Shown in pieces: positions 3,531-52,655 of a DNA stretch of 64,000 nucleotides. The notes beneath the pieces are model-generated. The model made no database searches, was not told where the DNA came from, and saw nothing but the letters and a program-made list of their open reading frames with translations. Every line of letters begins with the position of its first letter. Position 1 is the first letter of the stretch. Location: NCBI GenBank assembly GCA_012295275.1, contig CM022676.1:7998001-8062000 (forward strand). Direction: 5' to 3'. The stretch is from Chrysomallon squamiferum (taxonomy: Eukaryota; Animalia; Mollusca). The position numbers and the translations under genes were made by a program.

Positions 3531-4232
3531 ACTACTACTACTACTACTACTACTACTGCTGCTACTCTTCCAGCTACTATTACGACTACGATTAATACTA
3601 TAAATGTGTTTATTATTTTTGTTATTGATGTAGCTGAAGTTGATGTTATTATTGTTACTGTTGTCATTTTAGTTGTTGATGTTTTCTTGTTTGATGTAGT
3701 TATTGCTGTTTCTGTTAATATAGACGAACATTAAAAACATTAACAAATGATTGCAAAATAATAAAAAGGTTTGAAGGCTAATGTCACATAATAATCTTCA
3801 ATTCTTATTATTTGTATTTCTCTATTAATAGTATAAATAAATGAATAAATAAATAATAAATAATAAATAATGATAATAATAATAATGTTATTATTTTGTT
3901 CATAAATTTATATATATATTTGAAGATATTCTTGGTCAAATGATAATTGTTACATTATAAGAACACGTAAAACTCATTATAAAAAAATCCTGATTAAAGA
4001 ATCGAAATGTATTCTCTATACATATTTTAGATTTTTTTGTCACTCTTTTATCGTTTTGTGTGTGTGTGTGTGTGTGTGTGTGTGTGTGTGTGTGTGTTTT
4101 ATTATTATTTATTTTATTATTTATATAGATAGATAGATAGATAGTTAGACAGATATACACTCTGTATTTGAATTCTCGGAGTCTATGAAATTTAGTTAGT
4201 TTCACTGTTATTCTCTGATTGGTTGTCAGAAT

Positions 4233-7200
4233 TTATGTTGACATAGGTCTCTTCATTTTTTGTTCCATAAGTGAGGAGTATGCATCGGTGTCGCCCTCTG
4301 GTGGCGCATCATTTCCTGTAATAGAAATAGAAGGATACCGTTAATTAGGAGAGAATGATAGTAAAAGCAGTGATGGTGATAATGTTTATAATAATAACAT
4401 AGTAATGACGGCAATGTCAGTGATGACGACGATGGTGATGATGAGGATGATGATGATGATGACAATGATATGACAATAACGAGAACAAAATATCCGGAGG
4501 AAACTCAAAAATAATAAAACTAATCTATCGATGGATGGATGAACATCTGTGTCTGTATAACTGCCTGTGCAGGACACTTTATCTATAATTATTAAAAACC
4601 TAAATAAATTTAATTTACCTTTGTCTGGGGCTGGATGGTAATAAATCTCATCTACTTTATGGTTGCTGAAATTATAAACATCGAAAATTAATTAATAACA
4701 GGAAAAGTAGAAATACAGATCTTATTAATTACTAACAGACAAATTATTAATTAATTCTAAATAAAGTTAATAAACCACAATTATATATAAAAAATAAATA
4801 ATGCTATTATTAGTGCTAAAATATAGGCAAACTTTAATCATAAAATAGGCTAAAATTATATAAATACAGACTAAAGGCGAAAAATGTCTCGCTTGCTGTT
4901 TACCATTAGTTTATCCAAAATCTAGCTCTTTCCTTCTGAGTAAAACAAAATCCACTGTAATTTTAATTTTTGTTCACCTTTTAACTTTTCTGAACCAGAT
5001 AACAACAAAAACAACAACAACAACAACAACAAGTACGGCGACAGGAATACCAATAGCCAACCCTTCTCTATTATGAGTGTTATTTTGATCTAAAAATAAA
5101 ACAAAAATGAATTAGGCAATTATTTATATATGTTTTAAGTCGTGACAATCTTTATGTTGCATGCGTGTGAATGCGTGCGTGCGTGTTTATATTTTCAGAG
5201 ATTATAATAACAAAAAATAAAATAAAAAACATTTTAAAAGAACAGTATCTCTACTAATACTACTATTACTACTGCTATTGCTGTTACGATACTACTATTA
5301 CTACTGCTATTAGTATAATGACTACAACTACCGCTGTTACTACAAACTACTACTACTTCTCTTACTAAAGCTACGGCTTAACTGCTGTTTCTTTCGTATC
5401 TGGGGGTTGTCGCTATACACGTGTAAAAGCCATTTTCTGATTTGCTATTAATATCAGCCAATGAGACAACACTGTTATTACTTATCACGTGACCTGTGAC
5501 CTGCCATTCATAGTCACATGTCAGGAAAAATATCGCAGAACATATCACAGTGACAGACAAAACGGATTTAGTGAGTGACGAGGAAAGGAAAATGTTCATC
5601 CCTTATATTGCTAAAATTGGCATGCACTCAATTACAAATGGTGCTCTTGGCCTCTCAGTGGATATACTGAGGCAGGTTGTCAGTTTAGTCTGACTGTTTT
5701 CGCTTCAAATCCAAGAAAAACAAAAGTTAATAAAATCTAACCGTATCTGGCCTACAAAACAAACATACTTCCAAAGAATGAGCGAAATATTCCTTTGATC
5801 CTTAATTTCTTTTCAGCAGTTTATTATTTATAGTTCTTCAGTAGGTAGGTAATGTGTATTTGCTATTATTAATATACCTTCAGAGAGTAGGTAATTATTT
5901 ATTTGCTATTGTTAAATTATCTTCTATTAAAACGGTAACTTTTACTGGTGTTGATTATTTCTTGCATATGTGCATACTAAATAAACACATACTATATAAG
6001 CGCACAGACACATACACACGTAGATGCACACATATGGGTATGCATATACAGACATACATCCATACAAATATGGATATAAATATGGATCATTGAAATAAAG
6101 TTACATACATACATACATACATACATAATTAAATACATACAATATACACGTACATAAATTACATTACATTATATTAAATCACACGCACAGACACATATGA
6201 ATTTACACCTTGATATACATACTGACAAACACACTTCAGACTTCGGATTACTGGCAATGTTACATATTAACGTAACATTTAGTTTATTCTTCCTTGCAAA
6301 TTTAGTTAAACCTTTAATTATCGCAGTCGACGTAATCTATCTATCAATGTATATTGGTATATCAGTCTATCTATATATATATATATCTATCTCTATCTAT
6401 CTATCTGTGCATCAGTTTATCTTCCTGTTTTGATATTTTTTAATAAACATTTTATGATCTGTATTCAATATTAAATACAAAATAAAATGAATTAAAACTT
6501 ACACTCAACATTAATAATGATTTGTTTATGTGCTGTTTCGTTCGTATCCGGATTAACAGCAGTGCACGTGTAGACGCCATCTTGATATCTCGTGATATTA
6601 ATAATAAATAAGTTATTTTTACCTCTCACTTCTAGTTTTACTTCATTGCTGTCTGGTATGTAAACTCCACATCTCAATACTGTTCCTTGTTGACTGAGGT
6701 TGACAGATGTTATTGTCAGTGTGTTTATATGAATTGAACAGTAAAACGTGTATTCTTTTGGATGTTCAGTAAGAACATGACATTGACCGAGTGTACGTCC
6801 TCTGTTCATGCTGTATTCTGCGTTATTCACAAACCAAGTTATTAGAGGAAAGGCATCTCCTCGACAGGTAAAAGTAAAACGTGATCCAACAACTGCATAT
6901 GTGTCTGACGTTGTTAAATTGTGACCTTCAATTTAAAATAATGATAAAAACAATAATAACAATAAAATAAAATAATAATAAAAATTAAATTAAAAATATA
7001 ATAAAAAATATTAAAATTAAAATTGAAATTAAATTATTATTATTATTGATTAGTATTATTATTATTATTTTATTTTATTTTATTTTTATTTTTATTTTTT
7101 GATAATTACATTATTTCTAGGTTATACGTTACCTTGTGTTCTTCTCGTTATTATTATTATTATTATTATTGTACTTTATTACAGAATTTTACTTTGTATT

Positions 7201-50000: not shown

Positions 50001-52655
50001 AGGTAATTCGTATTTGCTGCTATCAATATATCTTCAGAGAGTAGGTAATTATTTATTTGCTATTATTCAGTTATCTTCAACTAAAACGGTAATTTGTATT
50101 GTTATTAATTATGTCTTCAGTAACAAACATGCATATATACGTACTACATAAACACATACTATAAAAGCACACAGACAAAATACAAACAAAAATACTATTA
50201 ATTTATTTTAGTTTACATTTTTATCTATCTGTCTGTCGGTCTAACTACCTTTCTAGCTGTTTGTCTCTTTCTCTGTCTACCTATTTATATGTCTATCTAT
50301 CCATCTATCCATGTATCTGTCTACCAATCTGAGTATCTGTATATCTATCGATATAGGAAAGATATGTCTTTTATCACATACCAGTTATTTGTTACTTGCT
50401 TCTCTTGTAACAGTATTATACACACAGAACTACGGAATGTTCAGTATTTTCATTTGCGAACAAATAAATAATTTCTCTATTTCTCAGCAAGAAATAAAAC
50501 AGCGTCTTAAGCCAACATATGGGTCAACAACTACTTTTCAAGCATATATTAATTTGAATTTAAAACCCGAATTTGTAATCTCACTCTGCCAGCGGTACAA
50601 CAGTACGCTGGCCCAGCATATCTTTATTTTTATTTGTTTTTTATTTTTTTTTTTTGTTGAGTGAAGAGTGTCTTTCTTTGGAGAGCATTTATATGAGATA
50701 TGCAAGAAAATGCAGCTGAAAAAAGCACCAATCTGTGCAAAGGTAAATCAAGAAAATAATAAAAAAAACAAGATGTCAAAAAAATTTCTATAACGATCCG
50801 AAATGCCAGTGCTTGGCAATACCTAAACACGGACGTACAGACTTATCCCCTTCGAGAAAATCTCGCGAGAAACGACGATATGGGTTCGGTACGTGAAAAT
50901 TACGTCTGTCCTAAACCTCTCTGTTCACAAACCACGTGACGCGATGTGGATGTTGTAAAATCCGACATGTCAAAGTAAAAAATAAAAGGTCCTGATAGTA
51001 AACAGTAAACAAAAAAGCGCGCGCACGCCCACATATACAAGCACGCCCAGGCACATACACAGACACACGCACACAAACACATATAAATCCTCACATAATG
51101 TAATCTACAACATAACAAAGTGACTGAGACCTTAACTGGACATTCGCACGTGAGCCATTATCACTGGTTGTCTGACATTTTAAACATACGCCTCTAACAA
51201 ATACTAAGTTGTGTGTTTATTTATTTATTTTATTTTATTTTTTTACTATAATTAGTGTCTTACTTACGAAGTACAGTCAAATTAAGTGTTTTATTGGCAG
51301 TTTGGTTCGTATCTGGATTTTCAGCCGTACACACGTAGAGACCTGATTGTTTACTATTAATATCAACAAATGAGAGAATGCTTGTGTTACTTATGACGTC
51401 ATCTTCGATTTTCCACTGATATTTGCACGTGATCAAACACGTCGCCAAACAATACACTGTGATGTCATTCCCTTCCACAGCAGTCACATCAGACGAATTG
51501 GTCAGCTTAAGTGATGCTCCAGGACCATCTTGAAAAAAAAAAAAAAACATTATCAACATCATCATCATCATCATTATCGCCAGCATCATCATCGTTGTCC
51601 TCATATTTTTGCTTATTCTTACTGATAGCAGAACGCGTTAGGCTGCTCGCATCGTTTGTTACGGATGTTGTCGTCGAAGGAAGAGATGGTGGTGACGTAG
51701 TTAGTGTTTGAGTTGTTGCTGTTGATATTATAATTACTATTACTGCCACTACTGTTTTCGTCATTTGTTGGCGTGCATTTATTTTTCTGGGAAACCTGAC
51801 ACTGGCGAGTGCGTAGTTTAGGATTTTGAATGTTCTCTGTCGTATGTACGTCTCGTTAGACTCTGCACGTAGACAACATTCAGGAACGCACTGGCGCAGG
51901 AGGACACAGTCCAATCACGACCTCACAAACCCCGTCAGATGCCGCTGACGAGACTCGAACGTATTAATAGCAGATGTATCTACAGTAGCGGTAGTAGAAG
52001 AAGAAAAGTAGTAGTAGTAGTAGTAGTAGTAGTAGTAGTAGTAGTAGTAGCAGCAGTAGTAGTTGTAGTAGTAGTAATAGAAGTATTAACAGTATATAAT
52101 GCAAAACAGTAATATTAAAAGTAGTTGCAGTAGGAATAGTAGTATTAATAGCAGTAGTATTATCAGTTGCGTTTGTAGAAGTAATAGTAATAGTAGTAAT
52201 AGCGGTAGTAGCAGTATTAACAGCAGTAATATTAGTACGAGTAGTGGTAGAAATAATAATAGTAATAGTGTTTGTAGTAGTATTTATCTTTATTTTTTAT
52301 TTTTTCATTATTGTTATTATTATTATTATTATTATTATTATTATTATTATTATTATCATCATCATCATATTTTTTTTAACTTTTTCAAGGCAAATTCTTT
52401 TAATTTAACAACTGAAATGTTTAACTCATTCGTGAAAGAAAAATAATAACAGATCTTTAATGAACTTTTTTTTTTTTTTTTTTTTTTTTTTTCAATTTCA
52501 TGTAGATGATGTAAATTGCAAATCCGTGACTAATCTGAAAGATTAAAATTTAATATCTTGGTTTATTGCTTACCTGCTGCAGTGGAAACGTGTCCAAAGC
52601 TGAAGAGAAGTGTACGAAAAGCGTGAATAATGCAAAACTTGTGTAAAACAGCCAT
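47004..52655 (-). CDS. IgSF receptor F: SP - C2/I - TM - ITIM-type tail (~237 aa)
   Basis: Exons 52574-52655 (MAVLHKFCIIHAFRTLLFSFGHVSTAA), 51268-51528, TM 49829-49951, 49083-49113, 48804-48850 ([11 protein letters not shown]), 48296-48400 (..PNSSL..LPYDVI), 47004-47068 (..NAYSSLD*); 714 nt in phase. Joining the first exon to this gene is an inference. Confidence 0.6.
50905..50990 (-). pseudogene. truncated third-Ig exon remnant
   Basis: FTLTCRILQHPHRVTWFVN matches 26503-26796 but 5' codons are deleted and the 3' part is missing. Confidence 0.65.
51268..51528 (-). CDS. C2/I-like Ig exon of F
   Basis: DGPGASLK...VYCLATCLITCKYQW...[11 protein letters not shown]; 261 nt. Confidence 0.85.

Follow-up and report, generated by a model that had tools for sequence, protein, structure and literature searches.

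Does a cluster of related genes in Chrysomallon squamiferum (Mollusca; the scaly-foot snail) encode recognition receptors whose cytoplasmic tails differ in signalling sign, or do the differences between its tails record the decay of a gene family? The cluster lies in a stretch of 64,000 nucleotides (GenBank assembly GCA_012295275.1, contig CM022676.1, positions 7,998,001 to 8,062,000 of the forward strand; hereafter the window, numbered from its first letter), in which an original prediction, made from the letters alone, had seen a birth-and-death cluster of immunoglobulin (Ig) receptors with divergent signalling tails. Analysing the window, we found seven gene units (A1, A2, B, C, D, E and F) in 4233-52655, six on the minus strand and one, D, on the plus strand; exon coordinates are given on the strand of their unit. 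As a genomic description alone, sequence comparison makes it highly probable that the seven tandem units are one lineage-specific immunoglobulin-superfamily gene family. We further judge it reasonably likely that this is a lineage-specific birth-and-death Ig family whose intact members are predicted type I recognition receptors with ITAM- or ITIM-like tails (ITAM, immunoreceptor tyrosine-based activation motif; ITIM, its inhibitory counterpart). Taken by itself, the predicted signalling role of the family stands at about even chances, and an immune role is suggested by analogy.

The window sequence has the look of an animal genome, being AT-rich (GC 26-37% in 2-kb steps) with many microsatellites and with short open frames between AG and GT. 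The units are built from signal-peptide (SP), V-type, C2-type, transmembrane (TM) and tail exons, which we located by searching the window with translations of its own exons (tblastn); exon ends were derived in silico from AG/GT splice sites and reading phase, and with these ends phase 1-1 holds for the SP, V and C2 exons and for most TM exons. Between-copy tblastn E values of 1e-10 to 1e-77 indicate that the modules recur far beyond chance, and Pfam searches of the longer open frames gave Ig_3, Ig_2, I-set and ig, the best E value (8.7e-10) being that of Ig_3 for the open reading frame (ORF) of the A2 V-type exon. Nine V-type exons were detected in the window by tblastn, eight of them within 4233-52655. 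Five of these eight are open and in phase: those of A2 (6623-6925, phase 1-1), A1 (8087-8392, phase 1-1) and B (16677-16985, 309 nt, intact), and the divergent ones of C (20695-21003) and of D in second position (26503-26796). The remaining three are damaged. The first V-type exon of D (25196-25503) has 308 nt, not 309, and is stopped in frame by the TGA at 25498-25500, two codons short of the donor; that of E (43868-44187) carries one frameshift; and F retains a 57-nt remnant of the D-second-V type (50923-50979) that is out of frame with its splice sites.

The seven C2-type exons in the same range comprise four intact copies, in B (15751-16011), D (26018-26281 and 27109-27369) and F (51268-51528), one with a frameshift in E (42923-43202), a pseudo-exon in A2 (5384-5554) that lacks its 5' half and has a frameshift and a stop near the 3' end, and a 3' fragment without acceptor (6498-6611, minus strand) lying just behind the A2 V exon and 88% like the 3' half of the second C2 exon of D. 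Five TM exons were found by tblastn, in A2 (4978-5089, phase 1 to 2), B (13860-13964, phase 1-1), D (28080-28196, at single-copy level in contig depth), E (42373-42484) and F (49829-49951). A pattern search recovered six SP exons of one type, five of them intact, in A2 (7425-7482, MSCKLFCIFLSLGCILYVQ, GT donor), A1 (8517-8574), B (17415-17472), C (21427-21484) and D (24726-24783), and one an orphan (22495-22554, minus strand) whose donor has changed from GT to TT. Two further SP exons are that of E, which is degenerate and, at 69 nt (45101-45169), out of phase, and the first exon of F (52574-52655), which is of an unrelated type with its ATG exactly at 52655, a hydrophobic leader and a phase 1 donor. 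Self-BLAST matched 1733-5554 with 37807-43115 and the plus-strand unit at 24.6-29.2 kb with an inverted unit at 48.7-51.6 kb. The expectation of about seven paralogs sharing SP, V, C2 and TM modules was thereby reproduced by tblastn, Pfam, self-BLAST and exon boundaries alike, and its many pseudo-exons and single inverted gene were also correct, D being the sole plus-strand unit. The only unit intact from end to end is B; frameshifts, truncated exons or a premature stop occur in A2, D, E and F.

We then considered the class of the Ig domains. An alignment of 64 rows (seven window V exons and 57 profile matches of at most 185 residues) yielded an AlphaFold2 (AF2) model of the B V exon with a predicted local distance difference test (pLDDT) score of 95.2, with strands at 2-5, 16-21, 27-32, 35-41, 48-50, 58-62, 66-71 and 82-86, and with the extra C' and C'' strands. 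Nearly all of the top 50 Foldseek matches of this model in the PDB were antibody or T-cell receptor (TCR) V domains (TM-score 0.55-0.73), the best being antibody light-chain (VL) and TCR V-beta domains, and the best PDB sequence matches of the V profile were kappa V regions. C20 and C85 are invariant in the 64 sequences and C48, C62 and W83 nearly so; the canonical cysteine pair, beside which the V exon has a second one, is kept in 7/7 window V exons and the tryptophan of the '(I/V)TWF' motif in 6/7. None of the V exons reached the gathering score of Pfam V-set (PF07686), their matches being to Ig_3 (13.9-39 bits), Ig_2 and I-set, and such V-set matches as there were fell on the C2 part. The domain encoded by the V exon, as modelled, is V-like by fold and unassigned to a set by profile. 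The four intact C2 exons scored 30.9, 31.5, 29.8 and 27.8 bits for Ig_2 (cut-off 27). The best PDB match of the C2 profile was carcinoembryonic antigen (CEA; 2e-23), followed by contactins, IgLONs, DCC and NCAM, which explains why relatives of these genes have received automatic CEACAM names. The N domain of CEACAM proteins is V-like and lacks the intradomain disulfide. Filing the window family under CEACAM was rejected, since its V exons keep both disulfide cysteines; the only likeness to CEACAM seen was at the generic Ig C2 level.

The tails are where the units diverge. Eleven copies of one tail exon in the window share acceptor context and frame, and they can be measured against the published ITAM consensus Yxx[I/L]x(6-9)Yxx[L/I] and ITIM consensus [I/L/V/S]xYxx[I/V/L] (excerpts of PMC9546547). 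Unit D, which runs from 24726 to about 37300, is composed of SP-V-C2-V-C2-TM exons, two small tail exons and eight tail exons of 105-108 nt. The small exons are a basic one of 31 nt (28673-28703, phase 1 to 2, set by its splice sites) and a 'YY' exon of 47 nt (29084-29130, phase 2 to 1). The array that follows (29618-37300, phase 1-1, with AG/GT sites, in tandem units of about 1.6 kb) begins with a degenerate copy (29618-29725) and one reading YSPL..CDVI (30314-30418), continues with five intact copies (31962-32066, 32590-32694, 33404-33508, 34997-35101 and 36700-36804), and closes with an eighth at 37197, whose stop at codon 3 would end the protein. The five intact copies read Y(S/C)(P/S)(L/I)-x8-YDVL, matching the ITAM consensus, and in-silico splicing joins them in phase to the TM exon via the two small exons. 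With a length of 105 nt and phase 1-1, any number of such exons can be spliced in a row with the frame kept. The 1.6-kb tandem units that contain the copies at 33404, 34997 and 36700 are 95-100% similar to one another, indicating that this part of the array is young. The multi-ITAM tail of D, the most striking feature of the locus, is a prediction founded wholly on in-silico splicing.

The other units end differently. F is an inverted duplicate of D; identity between their C2 exons is 67% at the protein and 83% at the DNA level, their YY peptides are identical, and in this pair F is without an intact V exon and the first V of D has a stop. Downstream of its TM exon F has a 31-nt exon (49083-49113), a YY exon (48804-48850), an ITAM-type exon that has lost its first tyrosine (48296-48400; NSSL…LPYDVI, reading …NSSLEEKGNNLPYDVI…) and a last exon (47004-47068) that ends in …NAYSSLD and a stop, with the former second half of an ITAM behind it. 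In E the TM, YY (41267-41313) and terminal (40745-40878) exons are open (…NSSHGDQENEFYEVI…), and the terminal exon, …NSSHGDQENEFYEVIDFDNQSQNASETV and a stop, offers YEVI only. The A2 tail has a 47-nt YY exon (4619-4665, phase 2 to 1 by its AG/GT sites and frame, NHKVDEIYYHPAPDK), with homologues in D, E and F, and a terminal exon (4233-4315, GNDAPPEGDTDAYSSLMEQKMKRPMST and a stop) in which …DAYSSL… is followed by a stop 11 codons on and YVNI comes in another frame; comparison with the E copy shows that a 1-nt deletion in an A-run has split this ITAM. The terminal exon of B (12226-12344, …DNLLDKMNVESERTDVDE and a stop) is a homologue of the ITAM exon without any tyrosine. The ITIM consensus is matched by LPYDVI of F and by the second halves of the D ITAMs, VPYDVL or IPYDVL; it is matched neither by EFYEVI of E nor by NAYSSL of F. 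Exon comparison thus agrees with the tails first listed for these units: multi-ITAM for D, ITIM-only for F, tyrosine-less for B, a cryptic ITAM for A2 and YEVI for E. A1 and C had been described as secreted or SAM-linked. Both are V-only: A1 consists of SP and V exons, with no C2 or TM exon before the SP exon of the next unit, and C, whose V exon continues in phase into a short exon ending in TAG (20210-20301), has a predicted V-only product. Their secretion would follow from the missing TM exons; the SAM link was not confirmed.

That link had been drawn from a SAM-like ORF (19540-19932, minus strand) next to unit C. The ORF scored 17.7 bits for SAM_1 (cut-off 23) and 17.0 for SAM_2 (cut-off 20.5), both below cut-off, and matched 2dkz (E 0.007) and TIR-1 (E 0.32) in the PDB, over stretches which we take to be SAM domains. 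Its Atlas score of 0.86 is a lead only, and its single-sequence AF2 model (pLDDT 70) has two helices and strands and no helix bundle. We found no TM exon and no splice connection at the locus joining 19540-19932 to gene C; the SAM match is itself weak, and a SAM-linked gene C was rejected as unproven. The frame at 19736-20131 (minus strand) is Asp/Tyr-rich, has repeated DYV motifs and overlies DNA words resembling TGACGTCA; past an A-run frameshift it continues into the SAM-like frame (19540-20131 together), and it may be a separate decayed gene.

Relatives of the family were found in other molluscs. A profile of the seven V exons, searched against 1.84 billion representative proteins, matched 205 at E<=1e-3 and 5 at E<=1e-30, while word-index protein searches with single exons gave no match. 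The 20 matches that were looked up came from Gigantopelta aegis, a peltospirid vent snail (7), other molluscs of the genera Haliotis, Dreissena, Mya, Mactra, Ostrea, Tegillarca, Crassostrea and Lottia (10), Priapulus (1) and unnamed sources (2); none of these 20 was cnidarian. The best matches were G. aegis proteins, uncharacterised or automatically named CEACAM1-like or CEACAM5-like (NCAM-like also occurs among the relatives' names), and about 48-50% identical to the window V and C2 exons. G. aegis P0166 reads SP-V-C2-TM-tail with an ITAM, YSSLNSPDAQNPSYDVL; P0001 and P0167 have the V-C2-V-C2 order of D, followed in P0167 by Ig-TM; and in P0004 and P0168 there is a third Ig domain in addition, and the tail carries an ITAM, YSSL-x8-YEGL, plus VTYENV. 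The tail exons too have counterparts there: the window ITAM exon is identical to the tail of P0078 (…NYSSLEARRDAPYDVL) at 13/26 positions (BLASTP E 5e-5) and the A2 terminal exon to that of P0168 at 8/13 (E 0.002), while the E terminal exon had no significant match to P0168 (E 15). Among the 150 listed matches, 42 have a TM segment and tail as predicted by a crude hydropathy rule, and 9 of these 42 the ITAM pattern. With P0166 as query, at least six G. aegis proteins matched at E<=1e-10, three from a single 53-Mb scaffold and the other three from small contigs (four contigs in total). The presence of both family and ITAM tail in G. aegis indicates that they predate the split of the two snails.

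The G. aegis genes LOC121386967 (P0166/P0027) and LOC121386101 (P0001) and the CEACAM1-/CEACAM5-like ones (P0004, P0168, P0007 and P0167) share with the window the four-cysteine pattern of the V domain, the CxxxCxxxC motif of the C2 domain, the V-C2-TM and V-C2-V-C2 architectures, the ITAM tail starting with YSSL and the multi-copy state. They differ in belonging to another genus, the window V exons forming a clade of their own, in having at most one ITAM in each protein read, whereas D has five, and in keeping the third Ig domain, of which the window has a remnant only. This remnant (15222-15349, minus strand, …NVTFVCNVASNPP…), with a weak match to the third Ig domain of P0004 (E 0.025), is ended early by a stop and would be skipped in the B gene model. 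That the family was 'possibly undescribed' was true in part: homologues are annotated in RefSeq, unnamed or as CEACAM-like, and oyster Ig receptors with ITAM or ITIMs have been characterised, yet our literature search found no paper describing this gastropod family. In the excerpted text of a scaly-foot snail study, an 'immunoglobulin domain-containing' family is named as expanded, with no detail there (PMC11871041).

To follow the turnover of the family we placed 26 V domains in a tree: seven window exons and 19 segments taken from 11 proteins, with matches covering fewer than 70 profile positions dropped. The V exons of A1, A2 and B and the first of D form one clade with 100/99 support, apart from the first-V group and the second-V clade of G. 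aegis; the divergent V exons sit on long branches where placement is unreliable. Contigs of four DNA-like runs from three studies were aligned to 24600-28900 (4.3 kb), where D is the only one of the seven units; one of them, X7, is of unstated kind and covers introns too, thus behaving as DNA. Per run, 341-778 contigs matched this segment, mostly at 90-95% likeness, and contig depth peaked on exons and about 100 nt of flank and dropped in most introns. Summed depth on the SP, V and C2 exons was 25-158x that on the TM exon (13,042 and 17,803 vs 113 in X2; 346 and 214 vs 8.5 in X1), which suggests that numerous paralogs of these three exon types exist elsewhere in the genome. Some contigs have an extra G at 25493 in the first V exon of D, and they may stem from paralogs. 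With contigs of paralogs present, a real 1-nt deletion in D is indistinguishable from an allelic one, and polymorphism of the V exons is beyond measurement. Over the D TM exon, the single-copy contig of X7 departs from the window at five of the 21 positions 28133-28153, where the other three runs equal the window; the X7 sequence may be a divergent allele.

How might such a family work? Whole units would duplicate in both orientations and then decay, and through the small symmetric tail exons the 105-nt ITAM exon would be multiplied (D), halved (F and E), broken (A2) or blanked (B). In a mechanism modelled on ITAM/ITIM receptors, ligand would be bound through the V domain and the tyrosines of the tail phosphorylated by Src-type kinases. 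An ITAM phosphorylated at both tyrosines would attract a Syk/Shark-type tandem-SH2 kinase, with activation of the cell as the outcome; a lone [ILV]xYxx[ILV] site would attract SHP/SHIP-type phosphatases, with damping as the outcome. Tail-less or V-only forms would be non-signalling or decoys. Coupling of receptors by these motifs to Syk/Shark kinases or SHP/SHIP phosphatases is described for vertebrates, Drosophila and Hydractinia (excerpts of PMC9546547).

Several points weigh against reading the intact members as recognition receptors. All gene models are in silico, that of the multi-ITAM tail included, and in five of the seven units exons are missing or disabling defects are present. The ratio dN/dS is 0.66-1.04 for close V and C2 pairs, as opposed to 0.19-0.45 for deep pairs, and the close-pair values are as compatible with relaxed constraint as with diversifying selection. 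Variable V positions showed no enrichment in loops (34/54 loop vs 26/48 strand positions, Fisher p 0.42). Over the 11 tail-exon copies (55 pairs), the ITAM exon and the 150 nt downstream of it are equally conserved, with a mean identity of 0.70 vs 0.71; an exon kept no better than its flank leaves selection on the motif unreadable from the window. The summed contig depth given above does not equal a number of copies. YxxΦ motifs have a use in endocytosis too, as the sorting signal for AP-2. Together the figures are compatible with birth and death under relaxed or mixed selection and leave diversifying selection unsupported. Pseudogenes probably make up most of the units in the window; the candidate working genes are B (non-signalling) and, possibly, D and F.

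Pressed further, these points lead to the alternative that the window is a gene graveyard at the decaying edge of a family, in which none of the seven units works and the motif differences are stages of decay. We hold this to be unlikely, though it is the strongest of the alternatives. It accommodates the truncated C2 and frameshifted tail of A2, the two frameshifts and degenerate SP of E, the TGA in the first V of D, the lost V exon of F, the V-only A1 and C and the dead donor of the orphan SP exon, along with a closest-pair dN/dS near 1 and an ITAM exon conserved no better than its flank. It has difficulty with unit B, open throughout with its splice sites intact, and with D, whose remaining twelve coding exons and 7/8 tail exons are open with AG/GT sites, whose five ITAMs keep all four key residues and whose defect is a single base that could be an allele or an assembly error.

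A different function for working copies would be cell adhesion: a nectin-, IgLON- or CEACAM-like family with developmental, epithelial or neural tasks, using its tyrosines for endocytic sorting or generic SH2 docking. The PDB matches of the C2 profile, the CEACAM- or NCAM-like names of the relatives at NCBI and the AP-2 signal contained in YxxΦ all point this way. Such families are usually conserved and low-copy, however, whereas here there are species-specific V clades, many paralogous contigs and pseudogenes, and the x7-x9 spacing of the paired tyrosines is kept between genera; we therefore regard an adhesion family as improbable. Assignment to a conserved single-copy adhesion family, which would have overturned the original prediction, is at odds with a family that is multi-copy in both snails, with at least six paralogs in G. 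aegis.

Seen as recognition receptors, the window genes invite comparison with systems known elsewhere. Vertebrate CEACAM paired receptors include CEACAM1, with ITIM and immunoreceptor tyrosine-based switch motif (ITSM), and CEACAM3, with an ITAM-like motif, and resemble the window family in having an N-terminal V-type domain followed by C2 domains and motifs in the receptor's own tail, as well as in the match of the C2 profile to CEA. They differ in that the window V keeps its canonical pair and a second pair of cysteines and that the window tails are built from a repeated 105-nt exon, and the CEACAM names at NCBI are automatic. The CEACAM family has undergone rapid species-specific expansion and has both activating and inhibitory members (excerpts of PMC2832619 and PMC5112662). 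Closer in taxonomy are two oyster receptors, CgIgIT2, with five Ig domains, TM and ITAM, and CgNCAM1, with three Ig domains, FN3, TM and two ITIMs, which recruits SHIP2; both are reported to occur in haemocytes, bind microbes and signal (excerpts of PMC11999971 and PMC11841013). Like the predicted window products they are mollusc type I Ig receptors with ITAM or ITIMs, and G. aegis P0078 combines a CgNCAM1-like architecture with the ITAM tail of the window family. They have been studied as single genes, differ in domain number, and were compared with the window by description only. The likening of the locus to CEACAM, KIR and Alr as analogy without orthology was fair; there is no evidence of orthology with CEACAM, and no homology with Alr was seen.

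Clustered Ig families with ITAM/ITIM tails are known from vertebrates, Hydractinia and Botryllus (excerpts of PMC9546547 and PMC12582321), and in the Hydractinia Alr complex Ig genes and pseudogenes lie clustered, their first domains V-set-like and their tails divergent, some with ITAM and few with ITIM (excerpts of PMC9546547). In its clustered genes, pseudogenes and divergent tails it resembles the window, from which it is set apart by its architecture of V, I and I domains with an Fn3-like fold and by belonging to a colonial cnidarian with a known fusion/rejection phenotype. The resemblance of an Ig cluster with ITAM/ITIM tails and pseudogenes to Alr is also the ground for taking the window as an allorecognition locus like Alr or Botryllus fuhc (excerpts of PMC9546547), to which we give very little weight. 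The nearest relatives come from a solitary snail, and in single-copy parts the listed contig pieces differ from the window and between runs by about 0.2-2.7%. We know of no tissue-fusion biology in solitary snails. Equally slight is the chance that exon-like fragments were spread by a repeat or transposon, or that a repeat-rich region was mis-assembled: the ITAM exon always travels with its equally conserved 150 nt or so downstream, the 1.6-kb tandem units are up to 100% alike and introns are filled with microsatellites and a transposase-like remnant, but contig depth follows exons and their flanks rather than introns, the SP-V-C2-TM-tail order and phases are kept in each unit and the order recurs in RefSeq models of G. 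aegis, and single-copy contigs of four runs span the intron-exon boundaries.

Other features of the window lie in and beside the units. Long (ATT)n/(ATA)n and (CA)n tracts stand beside most exons and may drive local rearrangements; at 12986-13600, in the last intron of B, some 600 nt of (CT)n-based microsatellite are interspersed with TTAA units. Between the TM and terminal exons of B there is also a 140-codon open frame with a Cys-rich stretch (12375-12797, minus strand, …CQTKRCKCFKTRLLCKS…), for which Pfam gave no match. Broken frames in the intron between the C2 and TM exons of B (14148-14728) look by eye like a decayed Tc1/mariner transposase, and a related end sequence adjoins the truncated C2 exon of A2, where 5574-6447 matches 14594-15462 at 71%. 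The ninth V-type exon lies beyond the range of the units, at 61500-61889 (plus strand); it is divergent, belongs to a second type (…TKWWC…) and has its nearest counterparts in the N-terminal domains of G. aegis P0010 and P0078, by which relationship the Ig gene neighbourhood reaches past 52655. At 54670-59111 (minus strand) lie ten tandem copies of an exon for a His-rich six-Cys peptide, C-x6-C-x5-CC-x4-C-x8-C (for example …KRETPTCFDDPDSCPADRPCCDGYHCHHADHLGNCHHGK), with a knottin-like cysteine spacing, which could be a family of secreted antimicrobial or toxin-like peptides. Pfam gave no match for these Cys-rich peptides, the transposase-like ORF, the CxC ORF or the Asp/Tyr-rich ORF.

Germline-encoded Ig receptors with activating or inhibitory tails (KIR, LILR, CEACAM, Siglec) are central to innate recognition in vertebrates. 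To our knowledge, clustered families of this paired-receptor kind have been described in few lineages outside chordates. In its boldest form, which we offer tentatively and consider doubtful, the recognition-receptor reading would make the window part of a lophotrochozoan counterpart of the vertebrate paired immune receptors: perhaps a hundred V-C2 genes with sign set by copy number and decay of the 105-nt ITAM exon, from a five-ITAM 'super-activator' via ITIM-only receptors to silent decoys, policing microbes or symbionts at the haemocyte or epithelial surface. Should most copies be dead, the locus would still be a clear case of birth-and-death turnover. If the genes are expressed and signal as predicted, the same design, in which similar ectodomains bear tails opposite in sign and genes turn over rapidly by birth and death, would have arisen or persisted in molluscs. 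The tail exons would then represent an exon-level way of altering the sign or strength of a receptor, phase 1-1 exons letting an ITAM be duplicated, halved or dropped, and the window would give comparative immunologists a concrete locus in animals with dense microbial partners.

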